A DNA stretch of 64,000 bases. Origin: Amoebophrya sp. A120 (taxonomy: Eukaryota; Protista; Dinoflagellata). The notes under the pieces are model-generated. The model was given only the letters and a program-made list of their open reading frames with translations, was not told the origin of the DNA and made no database searches. The stretch covers positions 9,386,715 through 9,450,714 of the forward strand of contig CAJINV010000004.1 of NCBI GenBank assembly GCA_905178155.1. Direction: 5' to 3'. A program made the position numbers and the translations under genes. Positions 1 through 63,419 of the stretch are shown here, one piece after another (position 1 is the stretch's first letter; each line of letters begins with the position of its first letter).

Positions 1-3000
1 GGGGCAATGTTGTTGACCGATTTCCGCTTGTTGGTGGAGTTTTTGGAACCCGTGTTTGGACTGCCAGCGTTGCCACTGTATCACCTTGAAGATGAGATGC
101 ATCGGGGTCCTCGTGCCCCCGCAAGTAGCAGCTCTACTGACGACCACAGGAGCACCAGCGGCGCGACAACCTTTAGCAACACCAGATTTCGTTCCTTTCA
201 CCTCGAAGTTGTCGACGTGTGCTGCGCAGCGCTCTTGCAACACAATACCATTACCGTCGAAGAGCAAGCCGTCCGCTCTCTTGTCGGGATGCTACTCCGG
301 ACCACGGGGCTGATTCCACCGAATAAAACGACGTCTGGCAGCACAACGAAAGTGAAATTCAAAAAATGCTTCCCAGCGGTTCATCAATTGATCAAATCGC
401 GCCCTGAAATTTTTCTCCAGCCCACCGGGGTCGCGATCAGGAATGTGGTTAGTTTGTTAGGCAATGGTGCTAGTACAGACGGTGGTGGTGGGACAAAACA
501 ACCTGCGGCTTCTTTTGAAACGAAAAAGGTGAAGGAGCTGCTTGGAACAATTCGGGAAAACTTCTCGTCTGCACTTGACGACGTGCAAGTAGTTGCAGCT
601 TCAACAACATCCGGCGCTCGAGTTGGTGTTGGAGGCTCCTCGTCTTCCTCGATGAACAACGATGTTGGCAACATCTTCGTACCCAGCAACAGCAAGCGGT
701 ACCAGAAGTTTCGGCTGAAGACAGAAATTACCCGTCGTTTATTGGACTTTGTCCCCGCGTCCCAACAGGTCATCGAGAGTGTCCAAGATCACTTGGCACC
801 CAACGCGTGGGCGTACACGAGTATCTTGGGCCTTTGCGCCTCAGAACTTCACGACTTCGACTATTGCAAGCAGATCAACGACCGGGGCACAATCGAGCAG
901 TTGTTACCGCATCTCGGGGACAGCTGGCGGATTGAGCACGAAGCGATTGAGCGGGAAAAAAGGCGAAGAAGCAGTATGCTCGGTGGAAATGGAAATCGAA
1001 ATGAAGGCGGTGACAACAATATGGACGTAGAAATGATGGAAAACAACAACAGCACTGCCAGTGGCGTGAAAAAACGGTTGAACTTTGAAGACTCCGAGTC
1101 GGCGGGTGGATTTGGTCATCAACAACATCCGCAAAAGTTGCGGAAACTGTCAACCGAGAGCAGCGGAATAAATGCCGCAGCTGTGGCCATGTCTCAATCG
1201 GTGCATGTCGTCGACCCGCTTAGGAGTTTTATTCACGAACAGGAAAGCCGGATGCAGACGCAGAGCTATTCCGGTGGGCCTGCTTCGCCGCCGATGGCTG
1301 GAATGTCGTCGGGTGACCTCCAAGGAATGGTTGGTGTTGGAGGAGCTGCTCGTGGCAGGGTTGGAAGTTCCGGGGAAGAAGTCAACAATCCACATGGCGA
1401 AGAGCAGGACCCCTACCAGCCCCTCGTTCCTTGCGAGAAGCTTCTGCAGCTCGCGAAGGAAACCGGGCGGCCGCAGTGCTTGAGGTTCATTGACGTAGCC
1501 GACTGGAGCAACTTATGTGGAGAGTTGGAAGTAGATCAAGCCAGGGACGACGAAAGTCCATCTGGATCTGGAGCAGGTACTACCCAAGCAGCTACGTTCG
1601 CCGAATATCTCTCCGAAGGGCCTATCGCAATCTCGAAAGGATACAAATCCGGTATGCGTATGCTTCAGGACGATTATACCAGAAAACGCAATAGAATGAA
1701 TCGGTACGAGTTCCTTTGGGATCCAGCGATTCTGCGGCAATACGACGAACTTTTGCCTTATTTGGAGCACGACTGGTCCACGCGGACCGACGAAAGCAAA
1801 AATCGCCTTACCGTGCAGAACAACCAAATCCTGAGCGCAAGCAACCTCGGAAAGCGCCGCTTCCTCGTGTTTCAGCTTTTGCACCTCCAAACCCTCGTTG
1901 CCCACCCAGTCCGCGAGCTGCGGATGCTGGCACTGCAGGTGGAAAGCGCCTTACGAAGTAGGGGTGTATCAAATATTAAACCAACATCGTCCGACTTCGA
2001 TCACGCGTCGGTTTTTCTGCACAAGAAGCTGCTGCGATTCGGAGACGCGAAAGCCGACCCAGCGGTCTACGTTCGGCACAAGAAGGGAATAACTCCGACA
2101 ACTGCGGTATGGGAGTGTCAGGATTGAAATCAACAAAATCGAAACAATTTGTGATGCATAAAATCGATACCAGTTTGAGCTTCAGTTTTCAAGCGGCGCA
2201 TGACAAATTTCGGGAGCACCAAAATAGAGTCTGTGATGCTGTTTGGGCAAAGAAGACTGCGCCTGTCATGCTACTCTGGCAGCACATCGTCTTCCCATAA
2301 ACAGGCTTGCAATCAGTCTCGTTTGCCTGCTCCCCAACACAGACCATACGTGCCCTACATCTTATGCATTACAAGTTTTTCGAATTTCGATTTTGTCGAT
2401 TTCGATTCTGACACTTTCATATGCGGGCTGCTTCGAGCCCCTGGACTGTTACTTTCCTGTAGAGGGAAAGGTTGCTGCTGAAGCAGGTACTGTGCCGGCG
2501 CTGATGGCCGCACCTCTTCATCAGAGTGGAAACAATAAAAAGGCCATAGTAGCGGCAAGAAGGAACTCGATTTCGGCCATGACAACGCGCGCGAAAGATT
2601 TCGTTTCAGCTTTTGTAAACGAAGAAAACGAAGATCACGACTTGCTTTCCGACGAGACGCTCGAATTGTGCCTCGACGATAGCAAAAAACTGGAGTCCAG
2701 AACTATTCCGCAGTGGGCGAGTGCGACTTTACCGGGTTTTTTCCCAGCCGCTTTTTCAGCGAAGAACAGCCCGGCCGTGCGGATGGCAATGGGAAATGCG
2801 ACACTGCGGGCATTGTTGGAAGAACAGAAGCTGTTTGGCGTAGACGGTTCAGGAGGAGAAGGTGACAACCTGCATCAAAATCGAGTTGATGTCCGTGCAC
2901 CTCGCAGCGGCTTGTTCCCGTCAGGAAAAGAAAGCCAGTCGCTGGAGACTGCAGGGAACAAAGGCAGGGCAGTGCCGAAAGCAGCGGTCGCAGACCCCAC

Positions 3001-6000: not shown

Positions 6001-9000
6001 CGCGAATTTGGTGCAGGAAAGAGTGGTGGGCCCCTCGGAGGGAAAGGTAGACGTGTCAATGGTTTCCTTGACAGGAGGGGGCACCAGTTTTGCTTCTGCT
6101 CCTTCTGTAGCGCACAAAGTGCAAAAGATGAATTCGTACCTCCGCTTGCAGATCTTTGCCGCGAAGGTGACGATGCGACTTGGTGAATGGCAGTACAAGA
6201 TATCCGCAAAAAACAACCATCCTTGCCATCCAATTTGTCATGCTAAAGAACTTGCATAAAGATAAAACTAAAAGTAAAAGTTCGAGTTGCACGCAAAATT
6301 TGCCATGCAAGAAATGGATGGGGATGGTTGTTTTTTTGTGGATACAAGACCGGCAAGACGCAAGACGGCCAGGCTTTGCTGCAAAGGGCGACGCAAAAGG
6401 TGGAAGAATCACTGAGGGTCCAGGAAGCGCACAACCAAAAAAGCCCGGAAACGTTTTTCGACGCCCAATTTCTGTACCTGAAGCCGTTCATCCAGTACGC
6501 AACCTGTTTAGATGAAACGTTGAAGACGTTGGAAAGCAACGCCGTCATGATGAAGAAGCAGAAGGAGCAGCTGCAGCGGATTCTCAGCGACGAGCGCAAC
6601 AACTACGATGTACATGGAAACCTTGTGACCCCTATGCACGCACAAGATTCGCTGAGGGGAACGCAAACTTTCGACGAGACGATAAAAGCGTACGTGGAGC
6701 ACACGGTGGAAGCGTTGTTGAAAGTTCTGTGTTTGTACGACGACGGGTACGCCGTCAAGCGAACGCCTTTCTACAACAGTGCGCCGTCGGCCAGTAAGTC
6801 ACCAGGAACATCTTCAAGGGAAAACATTTCGAAAAGAAATCGGGATCCGCACTCTGCCAGCCGGAACAAGTACCTGCAACGGCTGACTCTAATCACCTCG
6901 CGGCTGCTCGTCCTCTGGTTCAATTATCCGAGCATTGCCACCCCTTGCATCAGACGAGCCATGGCCATGCCGCCCTCCCGCGCAGCAGACCGACTCGTGA
7001 AAAGCCCGCGCTCGATTGAATATGAGAAGCCTGAAAACCGTCTGAAATTGAAACCGTTCGTCCCCTTTCTCCGCCAGCTCGCTTGTCGTTTGAGCTTTTT
7101 ACACAAGACGGACGACGGAGACGTCAAGATGGAGCGGAATATCAGCAACAAGAGCCACAGCAGCGAGGCGAGCGGATCGAGCAGCAAAAACGGAGCAGTA
7201 TCTTCGTCCTCCGGGAACAATTCTTCGCAAAACAGCACCCCTGGAGGCAGCTCGCTGGACCGGAACGCGAACTTTCAAGAAACGCTTTGGGAGCTGCTCA
7301 CGCGGCTTCTGCTCAACTACCCTTTCGAGGCCACTCCGGTTCTCTTGTTGCACAAGAACGCCGAACTAATTGTCCACACTAAAAGATCGCAGCAGCGCAA
7401 ACTGCAGCTAAACGCCGGAACGTCGTTTACCAAAGTGCCGCAGGCGGTCCAGGAAATCTTCAACGAAGCCCGGCGCCGGGCGGCAGCATTGGTGGTTGGG
7501 GACGCGAAGAGATCGAACGCGTTTCTGTCCATGATGTCAAAGTGGAGAGCAGAAAAGTTGTCTACTATTGCACCGATAGTACCGCAAGGCCAAGGGGTGA
7601 ATAACAACAAGCTACTACTTTCCGGAGCCTCCAGCGGACAGCAGCAGCCATCCGGTGGATCCGCTTCTTCAATGAATTCGCTGGCTCCGCAGATAAATTT
7701 CGAACTCGGAACATCAAGGGGGAAGAACATTATTAGCGGACCCAACAGCATGGATCATGCTCATGGGGTTCTAGACCAAGAACTACCGGGCGGTAGCTTT
7801 TCTTCTGGTGCAGGAACAACCTCCTCAAGTCTGAACCCCATCGTAGGTGCGCTGCGAAATTTGCTCGGCAAAGCAGCTACGGCAAAGAACAAAACGAGCC
7901 CACCGGATCATGAAAGTGGCTCTAGTAATAGCAGTAGTGAAAGCTGCGATGAACAAGATGGTTCGGGCAACATCGAGAACCTTCTCTTCAAGCTGCTCGA
8001 GCTGTACCAGCAGAAAAAATCCGACTCCTCGGTCGGTCGCCGCGAGTGGCAGGACCAGCTGGACTTTTTCCGCACCGAGCACAACTTTTCGGACGTGCGC
8101 AACCTGAGCCACTTTTTCGTGTTTCCGAAAAAGAGTAAAGCGGTGGAACACAGAAAGCTCGAGAAATACGTGTTTGATGCGAGAAAGGCGAAGCAGCTCC
8201 CGGTAAAAGCGACTAAAGCAGACTGCAAGGAAACCGCGCTTTCCCACCGCGTCACCGCGTTGGAGAAAATCTTTTCCTGGTGCATCGAGCTGTGTCACGA
8301 GCTGCCTCCACACCCAAATGGCATAGACTGGAAGGACGAAAAACGGGTCATGCCCATCACCAAGTCGGCGGTACAGGCGGAGACGCACAAGCAGTGCAAG
8401 CAGTGGGCGACGTGGTGGCCGAGCCTGACCGCTTACTCGGACATTCACTACCAGTACCGTGAAGCGGACCTGCTCACGGGGTGGTCCGACACCTTTCAAA
8501 TGGTGGGCAGCGGGGTCTCCGTGCCGCGCAGCATCATCGTGGTGGCGGAAAGCGGGAAGGCGTACAAGCTGCTGGTCAAGGGCGACGACGATGCCCGACA
8601 AGACTGCATTTTCGAGCAGATTTTCATGCATTTGAAGTCCGTCGCCGGAAGAGCCGCGCCGGGGGGCGGGGGAAAAACCAACAAAAACGTGTTCGAGCAC
8701 CTGGTCACCTACAAAGTGATACCGCTCGCACCGCAACAGGCCGTGATAGAGTGGGTCGACCCAACAATGCCCGTCGGAAGTTGGCTGCAGGTATTGCTTC
8801 AGTTTATTGTCAGAAGTTGTTAGTTTAGTTGAGCAACACGTATTTTTATTTCAATTGCAGCTCATGGCCATGGATATTTCATAAAGATGAGCATGGAACA
8901 CCAAAAAGTTTTCGTCCAAATTTTTCAACAAAGAAACCCTCGATTCCGAAGAAGAAAATGCATTCGAACAACAGGACGCTGGCGGCGGGCATGCGCGCTA

Positions 9001-10338
9001 TAATCCACAGGATTGGGCAAATGCCCGATGTCGCGCGGTCATGAACGAAGGCCACTTTACGGGTTTTGTGCAAGACCCGGCCTTGCGAGACAAGAAAATC
9101 GCGGCGTTCAGGAAGTGTTGCGAGAACTTCCAGCCCGCGCTATTGTGAGGAAAAATCCCCCCTCCCCATATCGAAAAGATACGTCGCCGAAAATTTGCAA
9201 TGCTGATTTGCGACCACAAATCATCTCTGTCTTGCAAGAAGGCAAGTCCACAGGCTCCGCCGCATTCTGCAGGCGGTTTGTGATGCTGTTGGGCCTACAG
9301 CGCAGACGTTTCTCATGCTAAGAGCCTAGCCCAAGACCTCTCTACTCAGGCTTAGTATGGACCTGCAGTCCTCTCCAGCAAGACAAATCCGATTTGTGTA
9401 CGCAAATCCAGCATCACAGACTTCGTTTTGATGTGGGGTGGGGGCTTTTTTCACTTTGATACGCGCTGAAGTACTTCTTTCTCGAGAAATTTGGGCACAA
9501 CGCGGTCAAACACCACGAGGCGCTGTATCAAGTGTAAAAATGTCTGGGTCTGGAAGATTCTGAGATTTGTCATGCATGTTTTACATGACCTAGGATGTCT
9601 GTAATGCGCGACCTGACATCACAGATTTTTAGAGTGCTTGCTGATGCCTACTCCGCATGACAAACGCCCTCCCCGCGTAGCGCAACCTAGACTCCTCTTG
9701 CTGGTCATGCAATACAGATTTTTTTAGATGAGTCCAAAGCTAGCGTCACAAGTTCCATCCTCCCAGACCCAGACATTTTTACAGTTGATACGCTGACGGC
9801 GTATGCGAAATCGTTGGCGGTGACCTCGATGGTCGGGTATGTTCTGGGCGTGGGCGACCGGCACGTGAACAACATCATGATGAATTTGAAAACCGGCGAG
9901 ATCCTCCACATCGACTTTGGCATGGTCTTTGACTTTGCGAAAAATCTCCCCGTTCCCGAGGAGGTGCCCTTCCGGATGACGCGCGACTTGGTGCACCCGC
10001 TCGGGTGGCAGGGGTTGCAGAACGGGGTCTTTCGGAAAGGATGTGAGTACGCGTTCGAACTGCTGCAGCAGCACGAGGAATTGCTGTTAAACCTGTGCGA
10101 AGTCTTTCTCTACGACCCCATCACGCGGTGGAACGCGCGCCAGGAGTGCGAAACGGCGGCCGGCGGGGAGCAGGCACTGCAGAGCATACGGAGCAAGTTG
10201 AGCTTGACCGACTGTCACAGCAAGTCCGGGCTGAGCCAGTTCAAGGACGTGCCGGCTTTCCTGGACTACTTGTTGACGAAAGCAACGGACCCAGTGAACC
10301 AGGCAGTGATGTTTGCCGGGTGGAGCTCGTGGTGTTAG
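1..10338 (+). CDS. ATM: ATM/Tel1-like PIKK serine/threonine kinase (5'-incomplete, about 3030 codons in window)
   Basis: Exons approx 1-2107, 2427-6200, 6350-8790, 8975-9140, 9467-9525, 9796-10338 join in frame (9090 nt). Kinase motifs LLVKGDDDARQD, YKVIPL, CENFQPALKYFFLEKF, GYVLGVGDRHVNNI, HIDFG, PEEVPFRMTRD, EVFLYDP. FATC end ATDPVNQAVMFAGWSSWC. Confidence 0.9.
2108..2421. mobile_element. Introner-like TIR element, family C (non-canonical intron in ATM)
   Basis: TIR tatgggagtgtcaggattgaaatc / gatttcgattctgacactttcata; TSD TGCGG; removing 319 nt joins the two ORFs in frame. Confidence 0.9.
6201..6344. mobile_element. Introner-like TIR element, family F (in ATM)
   Basis: tatccgcaaaaaacaaccatcc / ggatggttgtttttttgtggata; TSD CAAGA; frame restored. 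Confidence 0.9.
8791..8974 (+). other. Canonical GT-AG intron in ATM
   Basis: cag|gtattg...caacag|gac; joins WLQ to DAGGGHARY, matching the ATM kinase region. Confidence 0.8.
9141..9461. mobile_element. Introner-like TIR element, family G-like (ATM kinase domain)
   Basis: tattgtgaggaaaaatcccc / ggggcttttttcactttgata; TSD CGCGC; join gives FQPALKYFF. Confidence 0.85.
9526..9790. mobile_element. Introner-like TIR element, family A (ATM kinase domain)
   Basis: tatcaagtgtaaaaatgtctgggtctgg / ccagacccagacatttttacagttgata; TSD CGCTG; join gives EALTAYAKSLAVTS. Confidence 0.92.
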
Positions 10339-17791: not shown

Positions 17792-18997
17792 ATGTCGTTC
17801 TGCAGTTCTTGTCCATGCTTCGCCAGCAGCGAAGGAGACGACGAGAACACCTCCGCCACGGATTTAAAGCAAGTTGTCGTCGATAAGAAAAAAAAGAAGA
17901 CAACATCTCAGAACCGCAAAAAGTCGACCGACAGTGCAGGAGATGCCGACCAGTCGGAAGCCGCGCCGCTATTGAAGAACGACAGCAAGAAACGGGACAG
18001 CAAGGGGACCACGACGTCGTCGACCAAGGGGGAAGGCAAGAATAAACGGTCCTCCAGACCATCAAAAGGCAAGGGCAAGGACCAGCCCCCCGATGAAGAA
18101 CCAGAGGACATCAACGACGAGAGCAACGCAGACACGACAAAAAGAGCCTCTCGCACTTCGTCTTCCGCCAAAACAGCTACACGGTCGTCGAAGAACGACC
18201 GCAGGAGCAGCAGAAAGAAATCGCAAGACGAAGCGGAGTATCAAATGCAAAAATGTCTGGGTCTGGAAACTTGTGATGCTGGGTGGCGTATCATGGGGAG
18301 GCCACAAGTGCTGGGTCAGCATGACAAGTTTCTGAGCTTCTAGGTGTTGCCTACCCTGCATGACAGACTGCGTTTCTGCATGACAGATCAATGGGGCCCT
18401 TAGGTAACGTGCATGACAGATTTAAGAGCCATGCCAGACATGCATGACAAACATGCACTCTTCCAGACCCAGACATATTTGCAATCCATACGGAGTACTA
18501 TGGTGCAACAGAAGAACAGGGAGAGCAAAACGGCAGCGCGGGCACTACTTCTGCGAAGTTGACGAAACACGAAGGATCTTTTTCCGGAAATGACGAGGAA
18601 GGCTGGGACAAGGAGGGGCACGACAAGGAGTACAGTGCGGAGAACAAGAAGGGCGACGAGGATGACTGGGAGGAAGAAGATGATGAATCCTGGCCGGCCT
18701 GGACCCTGCGTTATCCAATGTCAAATCTTAATCTAAATCTTTTTCACCACCACGAGTACGGCCCTCAATTTGTAAGAATGCAGATTTTCAATGCTCTGTC
18801 TATCACCACCTAAGCCTAGTAAGGCTAACATGTGCGCATTACAAATTGAGGGTGGACATCGAGGAGACCAACATGGTGGTGATTTTACACTGCATATGCG
18901 GCGGCAAGCCACCTTGGCACGGGACAAGAGCCTGAAAAAGATAAAGCGGCAGGAGACGGCTTTGCAAAACGCGTTCGCGAAAATTATGGAGGACTAG
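17792..18997 (+). CDS. Unknown charged low-complexity protein with Cys-rich N-terminus
   Basis: Exons 17792-18238, 18496-18711, 18902-18997 join in frame after removing two TIR elements. Confidence 0.7.
18239..18490. mobile_element. Introner-like element, family A
   Basis: tatcaaatgcaaaaatgtctgggtctggaa / ttccagacccagacatatttgcaatccata; TSD CGGAG. Confidence 0.92.
18712..18896. mobile_element. Introner-like element (degenerate TIR)
   Basis: tatccaatgtcaaatc / gattttacactgcata; TSD TGCGT/TGCGG; frame restored. Confidence 0.75.
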
Positions 18998-39900: not shown

Positions 39901-41085
39901 CGAGCAGAACTCAACACATTCCTCTTGGATCAACGTTCCCGATGGCGCCGCCGCGGAAGCGATAGTTTTGGAGTGCCTGGAGGCGAAATTAGACTACAGC
40001 AATAAGGGGAAAACCGAAGGCGAGTTGAAAATCTCGGTCAAAGAGCAACTGGCGGTGTGTAAGCTGTTGGTGTTGAGCCTGAGACAGAAATTCGGGTTCA
40101 CGCGACTGGATTTGGGGAAAATACTGGAAAAGTTCAAGCGAACGAAGATGAAAAATTTGAGAGAGGAACTGCTACCGGAAAATAAGCCACGTAGTACTGT
40201 GCGACGACAGAAGCAACAGGAAGACCGACAGAGTGAAGGTGCTGTTGTGCAGCCTTCAGTTGGTGAAGAACAGGAGCACCTTCCTGAAGACGCGGCCGCT
40301 GAAGAACCACCTTCCGCCCCTGAACCCGAACAGTTAGACACTGAGCAGCAAAGACTCTTAGACCGAACGCACGATGATGACCACATCACGCATGCTTCTT
40401 CTGTAACCGCGAAAAGGACAAAGAATAAGAATATTAACACAAGAACAGGCCCCTTCGAAGCAGAACCAGAACAAGATGCAGAGCAGAAGAAGAGGGAGAA
40501 ATCGAAGCGGGCCATGCATCGGTTGATCCACGATTATGAACTGCAAAATTATCGTACTCCCTCGTATAAATGCATTACAAATTTTCTTAGCATGAAAAAA
40601 AAAATGTGCAATGCTGATTTGCCTTGACAAAGAAATTTGTAATGCAAGACCTGCATTTATACGAGTGCGATACTTTTGCACAGCATAGCGATAAGTTCGA
40701 GACAAAACCGGAGTTCAGCTCGATAAAGCGGTACAGCGAAGAAGTGTTAGGGGTGTCTGATAAAAAATCTTCGGAAAATAATAACCCGGACCTAGCGGCG
40801 AAGGTCCTAGTGTCGCTTGCGAAACTGGACGACCCGAAGTTTGTTGAACGGTACAATCAGTCGCTGGTGAAGCAGAGTTTAAGGGAGTTAGAACATCATG
40901 AGGTTCATTGGGAGGAACACGAGGTGAATAGGATCCAGAAAAGGGATAATACTGCGATTTTGAAGCAGGTACTCGCTATGGAGAAGGATTTAGAGCTACT
41001 TGCGGACATGTCGAGCACGGTCAGCACCGACGCGATGATGAGCATGCTCAATAGTGCTCCGAGCGCGTACAAAAGCATAAGGTGA
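36911..41085 (+). CDS. Large unknown protein
   Basis: Exons 36911-40534 and 40693-41085 join in frame. Confidence 0.75.
40535..40687. mobile_element. Introner-like element, family B
   Basis: tatgaactgcaaaattatcgtac / gtgcgatacttttgcacagcata; TSD ACGAT/GCGAT. Confidence 0.9.
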
Positions 41086-49100: not shown

Positions 49101-50742
49101 CTGTTGAACAACAACAGCGCAAATGTTCTTGCAGGCGTGACGAATTCAGCAGCACAGCAGGAAATGAACTCTCTGTTTGCTGCACACGACCACACTGGAC
49201 GAGAAGTAGATGCTTTTAACTCCGCGTCAGCTGCGACTGCATCGCCCTTCTCGACAGCCGCCGCCATGGAAAAATTCGCCCAGACGCTCTCCGCACTCCA
49301 GCAAAGCGTCGAAGACGTGAAGGATCACGTGGATCACGACGTCGTTAGAAGATTGGACACGATGGAAAGAAATCGAAGTTCAGTTAAGAACGTTTTTGAC
49401 GAGCCTCGGGGCGGGCGGTCATTGGAGGTCGCGTTGTCCAAGATTCTGTTCATGAACCAAGTTGGCGGGGGCCAACAGGTGGACTACTACACAGGAGCAA
49501 CCGGTACAATAAATCCGCGCGTGTCAGGAACTTCATCTGGAGCACCAATACCTGCAGCCGCATCTTCTTCGTCCTGCCACCCTTTGCTCCTCCAAGTGAT
49601 CCAGAAGGAAACTTTGAAGGCGATTGAGCAGCAAGAGCAGCAGAAGAAAATGTTCGAGCAATTCAATTTTTCATCGGGTATGACGTATGACGACCGGCTT
49701 CAACCAATCGCCGCGGAGCACGGAGACAACGAATTTAGTACCAGCCTCTTTACTAGTTCATCTTCGCCACAAACGACCGGAATTGGACAAACACGTCGTA
49801 CAGCAAGACCATCCTTGCAAGCACAGAACAAACAACTCGAACGGGATCTCGGAAAATTAGAAGTGAAACTCCGCGACAGCACGAATCAGGCAGTCGAAAA
49901 CGCCCTGAAGCTCGCGCAAGACGACTACCACGTGGCCGCGGAGACGGAGCGGGCACGGAGCTCCATGGAGATGGCGAGCCAGATTGAGTTGGCGAAGCAA
50001 GAGATTTTAGCAAATGTGCAACGAATGCTACTGGTCGAGGTGAAGCACACGGTGTCGTCGATTTTCACGGGGGGTGATGAAGCAGGGAGAGAAATGATGG
50101 CGGATTTTGTCATGGGGCATTTGGACGAATTGAAATCGGAAATCGGGGGAATGATGGACGAGTATGATTCAACCGTCATGCAACCGAAGTTACAGGAAAT
50201 GGAGAAAAAGATCGAATTATTGGAATTAGCAAATAATGCCGCTGCTAGAGGAGGATCAACATCAGCTGCAGATTTAGTACCCAAAATGAATCCCTTTGCT
50301 GCACTCCCAACGTCCGGAGCTGGCGTTGCTTATCCTGTGCAAAAGTAACGTACTCGTAGTAATCGCAATGATGCATTACAAGTCTTTTTCTTAAGGTAAA
50401 TCCGCATCACAAATTTTATTTCTCATGCTGAGGAAATTTGTAATGCATTTGTACGAGTGCGATACTTTTGCACTGCATATTTCTCGGACGTCGACGATTC
50501 TGCGGGCTTTGGATCAGGCGGTCGCTGTGCCGAAGCAAGAGTACGGCGGCGCGTCTGGTGCGTTGCAGGAGCTGCAGCCGGTCGTGGCATCTGCTATTAC
50601 GTTTGGCGGTCCTCTGGCGAGCGGTAAAAGTGTGGTCAACGTCCTCGCACTGGGAGCTGCAGCTGCGGTTGAGACTAGTAAAACGCAGTCCTGGCGGGAA
50701 AAGAAGCAAGCCATGCTGCGTCAGAAAGTTGAAGCGAACTAG
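43186..50742 (+). CDS. Large coiled-coil protein of unknown function (9 non-canonical introns)
   Basis: Exons 43186-44467, 44580-44861, 45138-46331, 46595-46997, 47266-47338, 47624-47919, 48074-48117, 48384-48673, 48888-50330, 50485-50742 all join in frame; E/Q/K/L heptad-rich. Confidence 0.8.
44468..44574. mobile_element. Introner-like element, family F
   Basis: tatccacagaaaaaaacccattcacatcca / tggatgtaaatgagtttttttctgtggata; TSD GACCA. Confidence 0.92.
44862..45132. mobile_element. Introner-like element, family A
   Basis: Family A TIRs; TSD CGGGA. Confidence 0.92.
46332..46589. mobile_element. Introner-like element, family A
   Basis: Family A TIRs (right end degenerate); TSD TTTGA/CTTGA. 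Confidence 0.88.
46998..47260. mobile_element. Introner-like element, family A
   Basis: Family A TIRs; TSD GCAGC. Confidence 0.92.
47339..47618. mobile_element. Introner-like element, family A
   Basis: Family A TIRs; TSD GAGGC/GAGGT. Confidence 0.88.
47920..48068. mobile_element. Introner-like element, family B
   Basis: Family B TIRs; TSD TGCGA. Confidence 0.93.
48118..48378. mobile_element. Introner-like element, family A
   Basis: Family A TIRs; TSD GGCCA. Confidence 0.93.
48674..48882. mobile_element. Introner-like element, family D
   Basis: Left end tatccaagaaaaaaactgtgttagtgtgac; right end gttacacttacacag...tttcttggata; TSD GGAAG. Confidence 0.92.
50331..50479. mobile_element. Introner-like element, family B
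   Basis: Family B TIRs; TSD TTGCT/TTTCT. Confidence 0.9.
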
Positions 50743-51321: not shown

Positions 51322-54300
51322 ATGCCAACAATTATTGCACGTGTTCCTCGATACCCAGGAACAACTTGTTCACCCAAGATGTGGCCCGTCGAACGGGTAC
51401 AACAACGAGGGCCACCAGGTCGTGTACGAACTGTATCTGCTCGTCTCTTGAACAACAGACAAAGGAGCAGGCAGCTCCTCCTCTTCGTACTATCAGCGAC
51501 ACCCAGTGCAGCCACTGCTTTTCTTTCCAGCAGCAGCTCATCCAATCCGCAGAACCAGAACAACACGTCCTCCGCCAACAGCGGCCCTAGAGACCACATC
51601 CTCCGACCCGGCACCACGGCGAGGACGGTGCTGAAGGAGATCACTTGCCCAGTGTTGCGCGCCGTCCCCTACACCAAGAACGACGTGAGCTACATCTACG
51701 GCCACAAATGTCCCTACACGTTTGCCGACACCCGGTCCCGCATCGTTTCCCGGCGCGCGTATCAACAGGCGTACAGGCGTATGCATTGATTGGAAAAGTC
51801 TCGCTCTCGTCGACGTCGCTCCTATTGGTTGTATGATGCATGACAATTTTATTTTCGAATTTCGTCAGACGAGAATCTGGAACGGAACTCAGCATGCGAA
51901 ATCGCGTCGCAAATAAACACATCTGCCATGCATGATTGAAAATTGTTAGTATAACGGGCACGATACTTTTGCGGAGCATACGACTTGGCGGTCCGAGTGT
52001 GAGAGGTGCTTCGTCGGGGGCTTCGTCGCTGTCTGCGGAACAAAAAAATGTGGAGGACCACGGGTACTATGAAGCTGCGTAAAGATGCAAAAGATAAAAG
52101 AGTCAAGTATTTTTTTTGTCGTGTGGGAGGAGGAGGACCACGTGGAACTTATTTCCCATGCCTGCGTTACTGTACTATCGCGAAAAAATCGATAACATCA
52201 TAACAGGCTCACTTCTGCCTGGCCGCTTCCTGAGGCTATTTCCTCTTCCCCCATCACTTCTACTGCTCGCCGAAACTCGCAGCGGTGCGGTACCGTCCCG
52301 GTCGGCTGGAAGCGACGCGTTTCGCCCATTTCTGTCCTGAACAAAGACGAAGTTCTGAACAATTGGATTAACTACAGCGCCGAGGCGCTGCAGGATAATT
52401 TTGACGAAAAAACCGAGAATTATCCCCCGGGACTTTGGGTGCCGCAGGACCAAAATAGGGATGGTTTCTTCATTCCTCCGCCGAGCGCAATTCACACGGA
52501 TTTGATCGAAAAATACAACAGCGCCCCGGTATTGCGCGATCCGAAGAAGTTTGTGGAATTGGTTTTGAAAAAGCCGCCGTACATGTGCAAGATAAAAACT
52601 GTGTTAGTCTAACAAGTCTGTTACTGTTTCTGTAAAAACGCGGAAGTAATAAATGCAACAGAGTTCGTACACTTGCAAATCATGCCAGCAGACCTCTTTA
52701 TTTTCTAATGTGTTTTATTTCGTCACGTACTAGCCATCCATGACAGGTTTTCTCTCTGATGCAGAGCAAACTTGTGATCATGCTGTCACCCCAAGAGTAA
52801 AGTTTAAGTTACACTAACACAGTAGTTTTGTAGTTGGATGGTACATCAACGAAATGCCGGGGTTCGTTGACGATTTGACAGGTGGGCAACATTCAACATC
52901 CGGCGCAGGAGGACAGGGAGGATCCACCTCTTCAGGAAGTGGTCTGCAACGGGGCAGCGCAGGAGGTGGATCAGGCTCTGCAGGAGGTGCAGGAGCAGGA
53001 GGGGTCGCCATTGGTGGTACTAGCGCCTCATCTCCTTCTGGATTGATGTCCGTGGGCCAGGTTTTATCCTCCGTTGGTGGTAGTTCGTCTGGGCAAGGAT
53101 CTTTATCGTCGAACAATGCAGGAGATGGTGCGGGGGAGGGAAGTGACAGTTCAGATTCTACTGCCTCATCCAGCTCGAGCGGCGAGGAAAATCAGGCAGC
53201 AAACGGATCGGGACATCCCTCCGGAACACCACAGAGTACTTCTCCCCCCGCCGCCCCCGCTGTTGATCTTTCCGAGGACGAGGATTTTCTCGGGACTACG
53301 GTGATAATTCCCCCGGGCCCGGGGATGCCGTCGTTTGCTCCCGCAGTCGGCGGCCCGATCCTCCCGGGGGCGCCAGCAGGAGGTGCGGCTGGTGCAGCGA
53401 ATGCGAATGACAATCCGAATGCTGGGAATAATGGTACTAACGACGGCGGTAATGGTTTCAATTTCAGAGGGTTTTTCAACCGACTTTTTCGCAACGGTGG
53501 GGGAAACGCTAACAACAATAATGGGCAACAACAAGAAGTCCCGGCGCCTGGTGCTGCAGCTGCAGCCGGGGCAGCTGGTGCGAATAATGGTGGTCAGTCC
53601 TCCGCTATGAACAATCCGACTCTACCCTCGGCAACAGCTTCCTCACCCGGAGCAGGCGCAAGTGGAACAAGTGACGGCCAGTCACCTAAAGCTCCCTCCC
53701 CCGCGACTCGGGGGGTGGGTTTAGCTGTAAACGCCGGTGTAAATGGAGACGATGATGCAACTGGGATGAACGGCGATCCAACGGACAACGAGAACCAAGA
53801 AGCCGCTGCCACCCCCGGTGCCGTGTTGCATCCCGGGGAGCTATTGAACCCGCTTGTGGACCCTTCGTCCACGGACGAAAACGGAGACAACGCCAACTAC
53901 AAGAATTTTCCGGGTGGGATTTCGGCCAAGGAGTACTGGGAGCTGGCGGAGAGGGGGCAGGGGTTCCGTGAGGGAAGACCCAGCTGGCTTTGCTCGATTT
54001 GTATATGATTTTAGACAGGAAAGTGTTTTCATTTTTTTCGAGCCGGAGTTGATGGCGGTGTGCAGTTTTTTGATGTACTTTTTGTTTTTGCCGGCCCGAG
54101 ACGGACAGGAAAAACGAAAATGTTGTTGCTGTCGTGCTGGAACTTTGTTCTTTGTGATCGCAGATGAACAATAAGACAACAAATACTACAGCCCTCGACA
54201 TCATGGAGGACCCGGTGAAACCGAAGGGCAGTCGGGTACTGGATTGCTTTGAGCGCGAGTATTTGCTCCAATCCTTAGCAAGTGACCCCCGACACCCGCT

Positions 54301-56996
54301 TTCCCGTGAGCCAGTGCATACACAAGAAGTCGAGCCTTGCACCGAATTGCTGGAGGAGAAAAGAGGTACAGTTATCATGACGTTGTGTAGTTCTTGGTTG
54401 GGATCGTGCATGATAAGAACTTACAGCTCAAAGTCTTCAAATAAGATGTGGTGTGCAGGTGCACTCAAATATCGATTTATTTTTATGATACATGTTCTAT
54501 CTACCTGCCTTGCTCATGACGCAGTTCCTACCTTGCTCGTGCGCATACGTACGTAGATCTCTTGACATCCGTCTTGAGGTTTAGGGTCGGAGCGCTCTCA
54601 GCACTGCTGAAGCTTTAGAACCAGATGGGAGTGCACACCCGGACGGATCAGAGCAAAGGCTTTTTGATAGCGCTTTTTTACAAATGGCTTCATAATTCGC
54701 TTACTCTGCTGCCCCCCTTTTTCCTTTCCCCCGGGCCCAACTGGCACCAAGCAGTTTTTCTTTTGCGTGTCCTCATCCGGACACATCGATCTCGGTCTAG
54801 GTTTAGGTTTAGGTATAGGACCATCATATGTCGTCCGCCGCGGCCGCTGTCCCGACCACCCACCGCTCCAGCGACGAAACATCTTCTTCCCGCCTACCGT
54901 CCCGGAACGCAGCGGCGATGGGTTTCAGGGTTTTAGGGATTTAGGGTTCTAGTCAAATTTTATGATACATGTTCTATCTAAAAATTTGTAAATGCCAGGC
55001 ATCGAGTCCGGCGAGGTTGTGGTGGACAACACGGGGAAGGAGCTGTACAACAAAATCAAGTTTGAGCGCTGGGAACTTCTGATGTACCACCACTTCCCGG
55101 AGACGCTGTGGAAGTGCGGCGGCGCACTCGTCCTTTGGTTGCTCGTGACCTACCTCGCGTGGCTTGGGGTGAAACGGACATTTTCCGTGAAAATCAAGAA
55201 GGACGAAGAATTGAGCCAGCAAGTGATCGAAAAATCTTTAGCGGACCCGAACAAACTGTTTCCATTGCCATCGTTTTATATCAACGTGAAGGGCAGCAGC
55301 TCCTGCGAAGGATCTTCTACTTCATGGGACGAACAGGGATCATTGAATGCGAAGATGATGAACCAGCGAAATGTAGCGCCGGAACAATTTGCCACAAGTA
55401 GAACGCGGCCAGCTGCTCTAGTTGACATCAATGCCGAAGGACCACAATTAGAGAACCATGTCGAGGACGACGAAAGCGAAACGTTGGCCGCCAGCAAACC
55501 GTTGCTTGACGCCAACAACAGAAAAAACGCTGTCGCGGCCCCAAAAGAGAACGACGACACCTGCAACACAGCGATCAACAGTAGTTCACCAGGGCCAAAA
55601 GATGCAGCATCTTCGTCAGAGGAGTACCAATTGGCGCTGCAGAATTGGCTCGAGAAGGAGCAGAAAGAGCTGGAGGACCACGAGAAGGATGTCGTGGAGC
55701 AGAACAATATCCTGTGCAAAAGTATCGTACTCGTATAAATGCAAGTCTTGCATTGCAAATCCTTTTCCTATTCCTAAGGTAAATCCGCATTGCAAATTTT
55801 ATTTCTCATGCTGAGGGAATTTGTGATGCATTTATACGAGTGCGATACTTTTGCAATTCATAAACTACTACCTGATGCCGTGCGACGGAGCCAGGGGCAT
55901 CCGGATATTGACGAGTGAAAATGGCTTTTCTGAAGAACAATTACAACCGAAGTTTAATATTTTGCCAATTCGAGAGAAGGAGCCTCAACCTGTGGTCGCG
56001 CATTTTGAGTCCTCTTCAACTTCTGCCATCTCGCAGCTCTCCATTCTCCGACCGAGGCTGCCGAACACGAAGCAGGCCGACCGAGGGCCTCATGTTTTTA
56101 AACCACGGAACAACTACCAACCAGCAGCAGGAGCTGGAGTAACACCTCAAGGGAACAACGGAAGTTCCTTTTTCGAGAACCCGACCCCCTTCGCAGGTCT
56201 AACTAATCCGGGGGCCACCTCGTCGTCTTCGGGAGGAGTAGAGGCGAACAGTGCGCTGGATATCCGCAACGCTATCCATTGCATCAAAAGTTTGATCGTA
56301 CGGGCGGCCGTATTGGTTGTCACAATATTGCATGACAGACCTCGATTCTCTTAGGCGGGAAAAAGCATTTTACAAATTCGAGTTCTACTCTGTGGCTTCT
56401 TGAAAAAAATTGTGATGCAAATTCTGCAGGAGCAGGCGCGGCATGCACGGCACATCAACTTTTGCAACGCATAAGCGCCGACCCAAACAGCACCATTCCG
56501 AACCGCGTATTCTACTGTATGGGGCTCTCAAACGTTACGGTTACATTCTCAACTGTTACATAAATTTGTCATGCAAAAATACCATCATCATCCTCACGAT
56601 CAAGCTGCTCCGCATGACAAATCTGCGAAGGGCTAGACCGCGCCTAAATCTGTGCGGAATTTGTAATGCTACAGTTGCAGCTTTCCCCTTTTCACTCTTC
56701 CCTTTCTTGCATTACAAACTCATGTGACAGTTGAGAATGTAACAATTGAGAACGCCATATACTGGAAGCAGCACCGCGAGCTGTGCACGTTCGGGAACCG
56801 CTTGGTCCTGCGGGTTTTGGTGTGGTTGCTGTTGATTGCGCTGCATTGCTTCATTGTCTGGAAAATTTTCAAAGTCTCCCAGCGAGTTGTGCAGTTTCAG
56901 CACGAGCTGAAGGAGCCTTTCGCGTGGCGGAAAATCACGCTGCGGGATCAGTTTCCCTGGGGCTACGACGTCTGGAAGGGCTACTCGTCTTTGTGA
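51322..56996 (+). CDS. Membrane-anchored U-box domain protein (putative E3 ubiquitin ligase)
   Basis: GT-AG intron 54001-54191 yields LCSISLDIMEDPV..CFEREYLLQSL..HPLSREPV (U-box pattern). Other GT-AG introns 52079-52206 and 54366-54998; five TIR introns; two TM segments; Gly/Ser/Asn-rich linker; start codon uncertain. Confidence 0.7.
51780..51980. mobile_element. Introner-like element, degenerate family B
   Basis: tatgcattgattggaaaagtctcg / cacgatacttttgcggagcata; TSD decayed, but the frame is consistent. Confidence 0.65.
52582..52840. mobile_element. Introner-like element, degenerate family D
   Basis: aaaactgtgttagtctaac / gttacactaacacagtagtttt; direct repeat GTACAT at 52579 and 52841; removing 262 nt restores the frame. 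Confidence 0.75.
54504..54957. mobile_element. 454-bp TSD-flanked insertion with telomere-like repeats, inside a GT-AG intron
   Basis: 23-bp direct repeat ttttatgatacatgttctatcta (54481-54503, 54958-54980); degenerate TTTAGG(G) tracts. Confidence 0.7.
55708..55862. mobile_element. Introner-like element, family B
   Basis: Family B TIRs; TSD AACAA/AACTA. Confidence 0.9.
56273..56473. mobile_element. Introner-like element, B-related
   Basis: tatccattgcatcaaaagtttgat / atcaacttttgcaacgcata; TSD AACGC/AGCGC. Confidence 0.8.
56518..56759. mobile_element. Introner-like element
   Basis: tatggggctctcaa..gttacattctcaactgttacat / atgtgacagttgagaatgtaacaattgagaacgccata; TSD TACTG. Confidence 0.88.
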
Positions 56997-58233: not shown

Positions 58234-61200
58234 ATGATGATGATCTCCAGGTGGCTTCTCCTGGAGAACGAAGAAGCGCGCTTTTCTTCAGAAGGATCGA
58301 AGATGACGCGAGAATCACAATCTCGGCCATGTCCATCATCACGACGGTGGAAAATGAATAAAATGCCGCACAGCTGCTCGTGCACCGGCGTGGTCTACAA
58401 TTTCTTCATGCGGCTGTTTAGAAAGAATAAGCATCTGATTGGTCAGTTTGATGATCCTGATGACCGACTTGAACAGGGTCGTGGCGCCGCAGGTGGTCGA
58501 GGAAAGAACTTCTACTTTCACGACTTCTTGCGCTGTCAACATGATTTGTTCAACATCTACAAGCGACGACTTGCTCCTCCTTTGTTCTTCCCCGTCTTGA
58601 AGCTCCGACAACGTCGTCCACGAGAAGAACTTCTTCGCGGCGGTCGTCTTGCGTCACCCGCTCCCGTGGCCCCACGGCCCTTGCAGTTGTGTAAGAAGAC
58701 CTCTAGAAGAAGTTCTTGTGCTCCTGCCGCTTATCATGTACTGCCAGGACGAGGTGGTGGACGTCGACGGCCGCGTGCGCAGGAGGTTATCTTCTATGAT
58801 TACTACCGTCTGCTCCTTCTCCTCGTCGGGGCGTGCGCAGTTGCGTTTTTCACCTTCTACGTGCTCTATCAAATGTAAAAATGTCTGGGTCGGGAAGAAT
58901 TCATGTTTGTCATGCTTGTCTGGCATGACTGTTAAATCTGTCATGCACGTTACCCAAGAGCTCCGTTTTTCTGTGATGCAGAAACGCAGTTTGTCATGCA
59001 GAATAGGCAACACCTAGAAGCTCAGAAACTTGTCATGTTGAGCCAGCACTTGTGGCCTCATCATGAGACGCCACCCAGCATCACAAGTTTCCAGACCCAG
59101 ACATTTTTACATTTGATATGCTCGTCTCGGTTCTGATTTCTTGTTCCGTGGTCGTCGTCGCACCGGAGCAACAAGGCATTAGAATTGATGACCAGCACGA
59201 GCAGGACCACGCTGGTAGTTCCACGGTCATCATGCACACAACACCTCGTCCAGCACCAGCACCTCCGGACGGCCGCTCATATTACAGCTGCTTCAGCATC
59301 AGCCTCGGCCTTCACCTTGCAGCATTCGCTTTGGACACGACGTCCCGGTCCCGGCTTGTTCAAGAACAACTAGAAGCAACAGAAGGCACAGCACATCAGG
59401 GTCGTGAAGATGTTCAGGCGGAGGACGGGGAGGACGAGATATTAACGATGTTGAGTGCAACCCCGCATCCAGGGCAGGCGCAGAGCACTGCTCCTGGGCA
59501 CGATCTGCGCTTTGAGTCTTTTACACAAGAGGGACGAGATATCCCACGAAAAAACTGTTTCACTGTGATGATTTTGCAAGAAACGCATCACAAGTTTGTT
59601 TACACATGACACAGAAAATTTGCCATGCGCGTTTTTCCCATAGAGAAAAACACGGTTGGAACTCCAATGCTCTATGCAGGTGTAGCAAGGCAAATAGTTC
59701 TGTGTTCCATTTTCTGCATCACAGGTTAACAGCGAAACAGTTTTCTCTTGCGATACGAGAAGCACGAGTGGCCGTAGAGGACGTCGTCGAGGAAGAAGCG
59801 GTATGCATTGCAAAAGTATCGTACTCGTAGTATTAGTAATGGTAGGCATGCATTACAAATCCGATTCTTAAGGCAAATCCGCATAACAAATTCCGTCTGG
59901 CATGCTAAGCTAATTTGTAATGCAATTTGTACTAGTACGATAGGATACTTTTGCAATGCATAAGCGGACCAAAGCTACGACGGCGCGGCTGCCATGGCCA
60001 AATCCGATTCCAGACAAAATGGATATCAAATGTAAAAATGTCTGGGTCTGGAAGAGTCATGCGGGTTTTGCATGACACAGAGGGTCCGGCATGGAAGCTC
60101 TAGCATCACAGGTTTCGAGAAGCTTCCGCAATGCCGAATCCGCATGACAAATGCCCCACTTTGGTGACAAAAAGTGGGCAGCTTTTGCTGCCTATGCATG
60201 AGAGACTTTTATGTGTTATGAAATGCGCATCACAAGTTGCATTATTCCAGACCCAGACATATTTGCAATGCATAATGGAGCAGGAGGAACTTCTACTACA
60301 CCTAGTAATTATGATGTTGCGCCACCTCCTAGCACATTTTTTTCTTCTTCACCGACCCGGGGTGATGATGAAGAAGAAGAACAAGAAGAACGCGACACTG
60401 CTGGTTCGGCACAAGTAGAACATTTTGTTCCCGAGGATGCGGCTGCCAGTGAGACTCTCCGGGCAACGGTTCACAAGAGTAAAGGGGGCGACTATTTCGA
60501 GAAAGATATCGTCGATGATTACCTGGTACCAAATGCAAGAAATATGTCTGGGTCTAGAAGATTGATGCCAGGTTTGTCATGTATCTAATTCGTAGCTCCT
60601 AGACCTTGCCTGGCCCGCGATTGACTCCAGGGCAGCCGGATGGCTGTGACCTGGCTAGAAAGGGCTTCGTCGATCGATTGCGCCAGTGAGGCCTTGTGTT
60701 CCGGCTCGATGGAGGGCGGGACCTGCGCCGGCCACAGGCGCTACCCAACCAACCAACCAACCAGACACGAGCTGCAATCTTCCAGATCCAGACATATTTG
60801 CAATCCATACCTTGTGAAGGGGGAAGAACCCACTTGGGCCGACGCAGCGCATCTGTTGACGATATTGCATTAAAAAGTGCCCCCGCCACCCCCAAAGTTG
60901 CAATAACTTGTGATGCGAAGTTTCCAAATGAAAAGTTTTTGTCATGCATGAAAGGAGTTAGTTGTAGGAATCTTTCTGTTTCTGATGCAGAGTCTAGCTC
61001 TAGGCGTGCACGGCATCGCTTGCATGACAAGCGCCGCGCTTGCTGAAGCTGAGATCTTTTGCAATAGTACAAACTTTTGCTATTCACGATTATATAATGA
61101 TCTGTGACGCTGATAGATGCAAGAGGGCGAGCGTTTCATTTTGCATGGCTTACAATACAAATGCTCCCAAGTTCTGGGGTCCTCGTGGGGGCATTTTTCA

Positions 61201-63419
61201 TTGTGATAGACGAGAACACCTATTCACTTTGCGCGAGCCAGCTTGTTCCGCGAGCAAGTGCAGCGGAGGGTGGCACGCCGTATCCTGGAAATGGGGGAGG
61301 AAGAGGAAAAGAACGCTATCAAATGTAAAAATGTCTGGGTCTGGAAGAGGAGAAGTTTGTCATGCACATTTTCCATGATCCATCCATGATGTCTGTGATG
61401 TACTTATGCCATAGCATCACAGATTTTCTGAGCGCCTATCGATGCACATCCTGCATGACAAATGCCCTCTACGCGTAGCCAAATTTTTTGACTCCTCTTG
61501 CTGCTCATGCAATACAGATTTTTTTAGCATCCAAATGCAGCATCACAAGTTCAGAATCTTCCAGACCCAGACATTTTTGCAGTTCATAGACGCGCTGTAC
61601 GACCTAAAGAAAGAACTGTACAAGGCGTACGCCGGGCGGCCGATGTATGGAGGCGTCAGGATTGAAATCGTCAAAGTTGAAATAACTTGCACATGCATAA
61701 AATCGATAACAGTTGCAAGCCGAATTTCCAAGCGGTGCATGACAAATTTTCCGAGCACCGGAATCCAATTTGTCATGCTGTTTGGGCACAGACGGCTGCT
61801 TTTGTCATGCTACTCCCAAACAGGCTGACAGTCGGCCTCGCTTGCCATCCCGGCAAGACAGGCGTTGCATGCCTTGTATTTTATGCATGACAAACTATTT
61901 CTATTTCAACTTTGACGATTTCAATTCTGACGCTTCCATACGATGCAGGATCAAGTGGACGCGCGGCAGCGCAACAAGGAGCTGGTGCGCATCCAGCGGG
62001 GCCTGTGCGAGTGGGTGAAGTTCGGCGTCGAGTATGCGCATCAGAAGTGGGTGACGGATCGCCCCGGGTCACAGCAGTTGTGGTTTGGGGGTCTTGAGGC
62101 CGTCACAAACACGAAGCAGTTTATAAACACCAAATATGGGCAGTATGCGGAGAACATCGAGCAGTGCCGGCAGGCCTGCACGGAGCACCCGGAGTGCACC
62201 CATTGGACCTACATCCTATGAACTGCAAAAGTATCGTACTCGTATAAATGCATTACAAATTTGCTCAGCATCAGAAATAAAATTTGTAATGCGGATTTAG
62301 ATTCAGAAAAAAAATTGTAATGCATGACTGCAATTACTACGAGTACGATACTTTTGCACAGGATACATCCACAAGTATGGGGATAACAGGGATTTTGCAC
62401 GTGACGGGGTCCTCGACGCCGTCTTTCCCAAATGGTTTCGCTGCTTCTTGAAAAAGTTCAACCCGCGCAACCATGACCATGTACACGACTACGGGTTTGG
62501 GTTTGGCCGACTAGGTATCCTGTGCAAAAGTATCGTACTCGTAGCAATTGCATTTATGCATTACAAATTTCTTTTTCAAGGTAAATCAGCATTACAAATT
62601 TCATTTGTAATGCTAAGTCAATTTGTAATGCAATTTATACTAGTACGATACTTTTGCAATGCATAGTAGGCGATTTTAGTGCGGGGATGACCACCTACCG
62701 CGGGATACACTTCGCCGACTTTAACCCGAACGTGAGGTCGGCGAGTGGCGTATCTTGCACTCCCACAGCGAACCATTATGCATTGCAAAAGCATCTTCGC
62801 ACTCGTCGTATAAATGCATTACAAATTTTCTCAGCGTGAGAAATGAAATTTGTAATGCTGATTTAGCTTAAAGAAAAAGATTTGTATATGCATGATTTTT
62901 ACAACAATAACAATTACTACGAGTTGTGCGATACTTTTGCAGTTCATAACCATGCTCCAGAGACAACTCGCTGCAAACTGATTTTACCGAGCACCAAAAC
63001 CAAAATCAAGGACCATGGCGACGTGTACAAGACAAGATCCACGTACTATTACAATGAAAAATGCTGCCACCCCCAAACTTAGGAGCATTTGCATTGCAAA
63101 CCTTTCCAAATGAAACATTCGCCCTCTTGCATCAATCAGTATCACAGATTTTCGATCGTGAATAGCAAAAATTTGTATTGCAAAAGATCCCAGCAAGAGC
63201 GGCGCTTGTCATGCAAGCGATGCGATATTCGTTTACGTCTAGACTCTGCATCAAAACACTCCTAGTCGGTCGCGGTCCTTTCATGCATGACAAAAAGTTT
63301 TCATTTGGAAACTTCGCATCACAAATTATTGCAACTTTGGGGGTAGGGGCATTTTTCACTGCAATACGTACCTTCACCTGATGAACCGGCACGGGTTTGA
63401 GGATCCTAGTCTCGTGGAT
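58234..63419 (+). CDS. Membrane protein with PAN/apple-like domain (3'-incomplete; 13 TIR introns)
   Basis: Twelve consecutive TSD-guided joins keep the frame. TM LLLLLVGACAVAFFTFYVLVSVLI; EQCRQACTEHPECTHWTY..RCFLK. Start codon uncertain. Confidence 0.7.
58867..59118. mobile_element. Introner-like element, family A (reverse orientation relative to the 18239 copy)
   Basis: Family A TIRs; TSD TGCTC. Confidence 0.93.
59540..59755. mobile_element. Introner-like element, D-related
   Basis: tatcccacgaaaaaactgtttcactgt / acagcgaaacagttttctcttgcgata; TSD CGAGA. Confidence 0.88.
59802..59962. mobile_element. Introner-like element, family B
   Basis: Family B TIRs; TSD AGCGG. Confidence 0.92.
60024..60274. 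mobile_element. Introner-like element, family A
   Basis: Family A TIRs; TSD ATGGA. Confidence 0.93.
60527..60809. mobile_element. Introner-like element, family A (TAC start, distinct interior)
   Basis: Family A TIRs; TSD CCTGG/CCTTG; internal (CCAA)n. Confidence 0.85.
60863..61208. mobile_element. Introner-like element, family G
   Basis: tattgcattaaaaagtgccccc / gggggcatttttcattgtgata; TSD GACGA. Confidence 0.9.
61317..61588. mobile_element. Introner-like element, family A
   Basis: Family A TIRs; TSD AACGC/GACGC. Confidence 0.9.
61646..61940. mobile_element. Introner-like element, family C
   Basis: tatggaggcgtcaggattgaaatcgtcaaagttgaaat / atttcaactttgacgatttcaattctgacgcttccata; TSD CGATG. 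Confidence 0.93.
62217..62365. mobile_element. Introner-like element, family B
   Basis: Family B TIRs; TSD CATCC. Confidence 0.93.
62516..62665. mobile_element. Introner-like element, family B
   Basis: Family B TIRs; TSD CTAGG/GTAGG (can be read as GT-AG). Confidence 0.92.
62777..62948. mobile_element. Introner-like element, family B
   Basis: Family B TIRs; TSD ACCAT. Confidence 0.9.
63047..63366. mobile_element. Introner-like element, family G (reverse orientation relative to the 60863 copy)
   Basis: tattacaatgaaaaatgc / gcatttttcactgcaata; TSD CGTAC. Confidence 0.9.

Follow-up and report, generated by a model that had tools for sequence, protein, structure and literature searches.

We analysed a 64,000-nucleotide stretch of the genome of the dinoflagellate Amoebophrya sp. 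A120 (contig CAJINV010000004.1; hereafter the window, with positions counted from its first base) and identified 40 complete inverted-repeat elements between 2108 and 63366 (107–346 bp, 8853 bp summed) that behave as non-canonical introns. At all 13 elements with a visible transcript junction, the transcript loses the element plus exactly 5 nt and the original coding sequence is restored. Mismatched flanking repeats strongly indicate that the transcript is cut one base upstream of the terminal TAT and four bases downstream of the terminal ATA. The elements are probably miniature inverted-repeat transposable elements (MITEs), and a U2-type spliceosome that needs U at intron position +2 but neither G+1 nor AG probably takes them out, with the acceptor set four bases beyond the end of the element.

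Elements were collected with an inverted-repeat search and a scan blind to target site duplications (TSDs), after which decayed copies were added from an end profile and by manual reading. The original prediction, made from the letters of the window, had given the same count and length range. TAT starts 38 of the 40 elements (the others begin TGT and TAC) and ATA ends 38 (the others end AGA and ATG); the two copies of the flanking 5-bp direct repeat are identical at 28 elements and differ by one base at 11 and by three bases at one. This agrees with the predicted TAT...ATA structure with 5-bp TSDs, and the families number more than seven where at least seven had been proposed. Under strict settings (perfect 5-bp repeat, identity of the terminal inverted repeats (TIRs) at least 15/25) the window contains 26 TAT..ATA pairs, and 30 dinucleotide shuffles gave 0 pairs in 29 cases and 1 pair in one. 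All window genes bearing elements lie on the + strand, and deletion of element plus 5 bases yields long + strand frames at 43045–50739 (1901 codons, 9 elements out) and 58225–63629 (826 codons, 12 elements out). Compared with deletions of element +3, +4, +6 or +7, element +5 was best at 34/40 sites, as expected if the element and one TSD are lost, tied at 1 and was worse at 5 that lie close to the ends of frames; at 3 of these, RNA confirms +5. Three elements can be slid within their repeat to GT-AG (62516) or GC-AG (47339 and 48118), one more than the two initially counted, the addition being 48118; in the fixed register described below, GT-AG is found in 1/40 (62516).

Exons 48888–50327 and 58225–58863 match proteins named Amoebophrya sp. 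A120 at 100% identity, and by sequence criteria the inserts are the published A120 introners (Farhat et al. 2021, PMC7789003). The element class was thus already known, in this very genome, as the original prediction had assumed for Amoebophrya in general. The inserts lie in the A120 genome, carry the TAT-N7-AAA inverted repeat (at least 3 A) and 5-bp direct repeats, form repeated families and are removed from transcripts without GT-AG. PMC7789003 reports 29,850 repeated non-canonical introns in A120 with inverted repeats of TAT, seven variable bases and AAA, a length of about 240 nt, direct repeats of 3–5 nt (5 bp in the legend of Fig. S19) and RNA support. It likens them to MITEs, found no transposase in A120, and describes the splice position as variable relative to the hairpin, or unknown, with no clear dinucleotide signature found. 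A120 is reported there to retain 83/89 spliceosomal proteins together with U2, U4, U5 and U6, and the U1 small nuclear RNA was not found.

Removal was traced in transcript contigs of four runs (X3–X6, one sample of one study, presumed to be RNA) aligned to 47000–63700. Of 26 joints, 15 were seen; in 12 the contig jumps over one element and exactly 5 further bases, and the other 3 are GT-AG introns of the same contigs. The 12 belong to the elements at 51780..51980 (joint 51777–51984, both=1, X3, X4 and X5), 52584..52840 (52578–52841), 55708..55862 (55706–55867, both=1, 4/4 runs), 56273..56473 (56269–56476), 56518..56759 (56512–56760), 59540..59755 (59533–59755), 59802..59962 (59795–59962), 60527..60809 (60525–60814), 62217..62365 (62209–62364), 62516..62665 (62511–62667), 62777..62948 (62770–62948) and 63047..63366 (63040–63366). 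Pieces of an X6 contig, 48883–50328 and then from 50483, add the element at 50331..50479 as the thirteenth. No visible junction keeps an element or resorts to a nearby GT-AG site, either of which would have spoken against the original prediction. Two annotated A120 proteins agree fully with removal as element+5, P0001 at 7 junctions and P0002 at 8, so that 24/40 elements have transcript or annotation support; the other 16 have frame restoration alone. A DNA contig (run X1, 50450–54560) retains the elements at 51780 and 52584 with zero differences, and contig depth over elements in X1 is very high. Removal is therefore at the RNA level, as predicted, with spliced contigs free of elements and this one DNA run, the scope of the DNA-read comparison, containing them. 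Raw-read RNA runs from 2026 (X10, X11) gave solely short TIR matches with foreign flanks and no information on window genes.

Because the left and right 5-bp repeats differ at some elements, the junction reveals which copy survives. Transcripts retain the left copy at position 1 (62516, repeats CTAGG/GTAGG), position 2 (56273, AACGC/AGCGC), position 3 (50331, TTGCT/TTTCT, also covered by P0001) and position 4 (55708, AACAA/AACTA; 60527, which starts TAC, CCTGG/CCTTG); at 51780 (AGGCG/CGACT) they keep left positions 1 and 3 together with the right copy at position 5. In the annotated proteins, the junction of 46332..46589 (TTTGA/CTTGA) agrees with P0001, and P0002 keeps left position 1 at 61317..61588 (263-bp family, AACGC/GACGC). 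A TIR pattern scan further returned at least 157 loci with a total of 712 kb. Every one of them comes from a single metagenome assembly (JACKZZ01 contigs, hereafter the relative), which carries the same families at 70–95% identity. At two non-synonymous position-5 sites of the relative with A-TAT donors, the A120 orthologues fit the right copy only (residue G not E at L004, A not T at L049), and at one position-3 site the orthologue fits the left copy only. The L049 orthologue was obtained by a cluster look-up; a direct homologue search with the L049 exon matched nothing. A single cut after left-repeat position 4 accounts for every informative site: 6 window elements seen in RNA, 2 seen in annotated proteins of the window and 3 comparisons of the relative with A120 orthologues. 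With positions 1–4 taken from the left copy and position 5 from the right, the intron would read N-TAT...ATA-NNNN, which puts the initial T of the TIR at +2, where GT has its T. Two elements with non-G donors, the decayed copy at 18712..18896 (TGCGT/TGCGG) and the one at 47339..47618 (GAGGC/GAGGT), differ synonymously at position 5, so proteins, including P0001 at 47339, cannot place the register there. Published tallies of NT starts were not counted as support because they are products of aligner choices. The fixed register is well supported and, with the U+2 rule, is the new part here; neither was found in the literature searched, as text only, and the logos of Farhat et al. Fig. 3 and S14–S25 may bear on them. 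Exact removal of the element and one TSD, as first proposed, thus stands, while boundaries free to slide inside the repeat give way to a single half-canonical register.

The role of this T was assessed in 402 elements whose ends were detected without the terminal three bases and of which 324 could be given an orientation from their coding score. At the transcript 5′ end, the first T of TAT was altered in 0/324, and its mirror A at the 3′ end in 9/324 (p=0.004); in families of six or more the counts were 0 versus 8 (n=287). As this conservation follows transcript direction, a strand-blind DNA process would not produce it. The first bases of the three GT-AG introns are GTAT or GTAC (GTAY), like the NTAT/NTAC of the elements. 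Selection for G+1 was not seen (left repeat position 5 is G in 32% versus 29% background), nor was selection for AG at the intron end (15/167), and G at repeat position 4 is mildly raised (40% versus 29%); the pattern of a canonical U2-type GT/GC donor with AG acceptor is absent apart from T+2. Orientation is balanced in the three big families (39:39, 26:19, 21:22). The predicted pairing probability of TAT with ATA is at most 0.1 in 6/13 RNA-confirmed elements, perfect end pairing is predicted in 7/13, and 51780 is cut exactly despite differences at 3/5 repeat bases; removal therefore depends neither on the repeat nor on perfect hairpin formation. The structure- or TIR-guided removal put forward in the original prediction accordingly loses its purely hairpin-guided part. 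An internal motif, GCATNACAA, has 87 occurrences within the 8.7 kb of window elements and 4 in 55 kb of spliced sequence, and no Rfam family matched in the window.

The transposon nature of the elements, proposed at the outset, was confirmed: they are short, non-coding, bounded by TIRs, multicopy and present in both orientations, with a TSD of fixed length. Among TSD-blind elements of the relative, a perfect 5-bp repeat flanks 259/339 and a 6–9 bp repeat 0/339. Pfam searches of 18 window proteins detected no DDE and no integrase domain, and the TIR pattern had 0 matches in viral contigs. Only two TIR-bounded elements in the relative's loci exceed 500 bp (834 and 631 bp), the 834-bp one being a nested insertion. 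No empty site was seen; the sole non-element match between window and loci (26285–26850) is another repeat and not an orthologous locus. A published lead now exists for the mobilising transposase, which the original prediction had called unresolved: file sd07 of PMC12130899 (Gozashti et al. 2025) lists A120 family 38 as 'Ginger, 5-bp TSD, TA/TA Termini' with Copia/Gypsy-like homology, a family not shown to share TIRs with the 107–346 bp window elements. In PMC2836005 and PMC10045372, the Ginger2/Tdd group is characterised by 4–5 bp TSDs and a DDE transposase resembling Gypsy integrase; its Tdd-4/5 make 5-bp TSDs as the window elements do, and IS3EU/GingerRoot elements share their TA..TA termini but have a 6-bp TSD, seen in 0/339 elements of the relative. 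The Tdd-4/5 TSD, the IS3EU/GingerRoot termini and the family 38 label combined make a transposase of the integrase clan the likely mobiliser, at the level of the clan and not of a named superfamily.

In the preferred explanation, a DDE transposase of the retroviral-integrase clan (Ginger2/Tdd or IS3EU-like) would bind the TAT-N7-AAA ends and GCATNACAA and would insert the element in either orientation by a 5-bp staggered cut. The transcript would then lose the element and 5 nt, as it does at the 13 elements above, with the first T of the TIR becoming intron +2. The spliceosome would keep its need for U+2, drop G+1, AG and the pair of first and last bases, and measure the position of the acceptor from the end of the element. 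This scheme would serve both orientations, the element being an inverted repeat, and any insertion would be a harmless intron. Spliceosomal catalysis and this acceptor ruler are inferred; Fritillaria offers a precedent in which a U2 spliceosome handles non-GT-AG transposon introns (PMC13326754). A more far-reaching version, which we consider unlikely, is that tens of thousands of A120 introns follow a splice code of their own, with NU as the donor and the acceptor counted off four bases beyond the transposon; in this version, U1 and U2AF would have been replaced by a new factor, possibly a domesticated transposase domain binding the TIR or GCATNACAA.

Several observations weigh against spliceosomal removal with a U+2 rule. 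The AG-less acceptor shows no sequence bias by which it could be defined, and branch-motif tests of the elements were negative. The first A of the terminal ATA, A(-7), was unsupported as branch point (7 versus 3, p=0.34), and GCATNACAA was rejected as branch site, its 198 sense and 192 antisense copies being symmetric; this symmetry makes it more likely a transposase site. The asymmetry at position 1 had been predicted beforehand, yet its significance would be lost on correction for 45 positions, and the counts weaken to 1 versus 9 at the loosest orientation threshold and 1 versus 7 in the first pass; one other TIR position of the 45 reaches p<0.05, and none besides position 1 is clearly asymmetric. 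At position 5 the evidence comprises one RNA site, which has a G donor, and two non-G sites seen as orthologue proteins only. The RNA evidence stems from contigs of one sample, presumed RNA, with 15/26 joints visible. On the transposon side, the termini of Ginger2/Tdd are TGTNR where those of the window elements are TAT, and the search proposed originally for long elements with the same TIRs and a transposase gene found no transposase-bearing copy in the window or in the 712 kb of the relative.

The same register could also be produced by RNA removal through non-spliceosomal or heavily remodelled machinery of the euglenid kind, which we regard as somewhat unlikely; in this alternative, the guide would be either the hairpin formed end to end or a protein with affinity for the TIR ends or GCATNACAA, which might derive from a transposase. 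An acceptor with neither AG nor sequence bias, the U1 not found in A120 (PMC7789003), the predicted end-to-end pairing of most elements, the enrichment of GCATNACAA and the offset TIR pairing likewise described for euglenid non-conventional introns (PMC11282704) speak for such a process. It leaves aside, however, that the required T sits exactly at the spliceosomal +2 position and that GT-AG introns in the same transcript begin GTAY, and the weak end pairing predicted for nearly half of the exactly removed elements fits it poorly. Spliceosomal removal in a variable register, each site being cut at whichever dinucleotides of its repeat look most canonical, is improbable: all informative sites fit the cut after position 4. 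The variable splice positions reported in PMC7789003 and the published annotations, which mix NT starts and AN ends (in fam2 69% NT and 68% AN), favour it, and perfect repeats at 28/40 elements conceal the cut position; yet the NT/AN mix is also what an aligner would probably give on a palindromic element.

Precise excision from DNA at some life stage, in the manner of internal eliminated sequences (IESs), was the less likely alternative of the original prediction and is now highly improbable. Paramecium IESs have TIRs and a direct repeat of which one copy is left behind, a resemblance that speaks for this route, and the DNA run has 2268 joints beyond those listed, leaving room for rare element-free DNA. 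Against it, the elements are retained in that DNA run, although the joints listed are a small part of the whole; the contigs that lack elements also lack GT-AG introns; and conservation of the T tracks transcript direction.

The window elements fall into the following families. Members of the 150-bp family lie at 27648..27797 (repeat GAAGC), 40535..40687 (ACGAT/GCGAT), 47920..48068 (TGCGA), 55708, 59802 (AGCGG), 62217 (CATCC), 62516 and 62777 (ACCAT), and a lone right end of this family stands at 24130–24170, outside any long open reading frame. The 210-bp family occurs at 48674..48882 (GGAAG) and 59540 (CGAGA), and the 255-bp family at 18239..18490 (CGGAG), 32980..33239 (ATGCC), 44862..45132 (CGGGA), 48118..48378 (GGCCA) and 58867..59118 (TGCTC; 90% identity to the copy at 18239, opposite orientation). 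Besides 61317, the 263-bp family comprises 9526..9790 (CGCTG), 29943..30216 (AGCCG, ending AGA), 46998..47260 (GCAGC) and 60024..60274 (ATGGA). The 320-bp family is found at 9141..9461 (CGCGC) and 63047 (CGTAC), and the 308-bp family at 2108..2421 (TGCGG, frame restored by +5) and 61646..61940 (CGATG). Further elements lie at 6201..6344 (CAAGA), 21851..22017 (AGAAC), 30305..30465 (ACGAC/GCGAC), 32755..32908 (TGAGA), 33316..33498 (CCGGG), 44468..44574 (GACCA; the shortest, 107 bp), 56518 (TACTG) and 60863..61208 (GACGA; the longest, 346 bp). Decayed copies are 18712, 51780, 56273 and 52584, the last of the form TGT...ATG (GTACA) and still removed as element+5. A 41st element, of the 308-bp family (63420..63627, 93% identity to an L024 copy), is interrupted by another repeat and runs past the window end. 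The interrupting repeat (63628–64000, also cut by the window end) starts with TGTAG, a TGTNR or Ginger-like end, directly after TATA and has GC-rich internal repeats; other contigs carry copies with other flanks, and it had 0 matches in the relative's loci and in viral contigs. It is a candidate larger transposon.

The GT-AG introns are all on the + strand: 52064..52206 (GTAC...ATA-ACAG, possibly element-derived, joint in 4/4 runs), 54001..54191 (GTAT) and 54366..54998 (GTAC), the last two with joints in transcript contigs. The 633-nt third intron contains telomere-like TTTAGG(G) repeats (54798–54952) and a 23-bp direct repeat (54481/54958). An intronless open reading frame of 1312 codons with APE endonuclease and reverse transcriptase domains (13079–17014, +) is LINE-like (long interspersed nuclear element) and lies just downstream of a poly-A run. 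The 566-bp repeat at 26285–26850 shares 95% identity with the relative (L030 724–1289), where its copy has an (ATC)n tail, is nested in a TAT element and looks like a short interspersed nuclear element or a LINE tail. An exostosin GT47 glycosyltransferase domain is encoded at 24383–26068 (+), and 6346–8820 (+) gives a PI3/PI4-kinase hit that is weak and falls short of the curated cut-off; the remaining host proteins tested in the window had no Pfam match. Introner sequence is present in translated form in many database proteins, P0038 and an annotated A120 protein among them, a sign of gene models left unspliced. RNA reads of X10, which bears the same species label, match 60022–60055 by a 33-nt TIR alone with foreign flanks, which suggests that a related element is retained in one transcript of another strain.

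More than 60% of Amoebophrya introns are non-canonical, and how they are removed, apparently without U1, has been an open question since 2021, in part owing to direct repeats that mask where the cuts fall. A single register in which one base (U+2) is required and the acceptor needs no particular sequence makes the splicing question directly testable and says which spliceosome contacts (G+1, AG, the pair of first and last bases) must be relaxed. It may also explain how one transposon group invades coding sequence without cost, at any 5-mer and in either orientation, and it would correct intron coordinates of the published annotation. If the NU code were true, a transposon would have rewired host splicing such that every insertion is a perfect intron.

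The window elements share organism, TAT-N7-AAA inverted repeats, non-GT-AG ends, RNA support and MITE-like character with the introners of PMC7789003. They differ from that account in that mismatched repeats fix the register and single out U+2, where the available text has the splice position as variable or unknown; it also calls introner families strain-specific, whereas the same families were found here in another assembly. Euglenid non-conventional introns resemble them in TIR pairing and in repeats at the junctions, and the U+2 rule seen here is not mentioned in the available part of PMC11282704. In Polarella and Symbiodinium (bioRxiv 10.1101/2020.10.14.339549), introners likewise co-opt splice sites from the TSD and some classes are used in both orientations, but there the TSD must start with G or contain AG, whereas any 5-mer works in the window. 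The introns of Fritillaria borealis (PMC13326754) are, like those of the window, derived from MITEs with TIRs and TSDs and lack GT-AG, and they are removed by a U2-type spliceosome; their ends are mostly AG-AC or AG-AT with U1 kept, whereas A120, in which U1 was not found, keeps U+2 and leaves G+1 and AG free.

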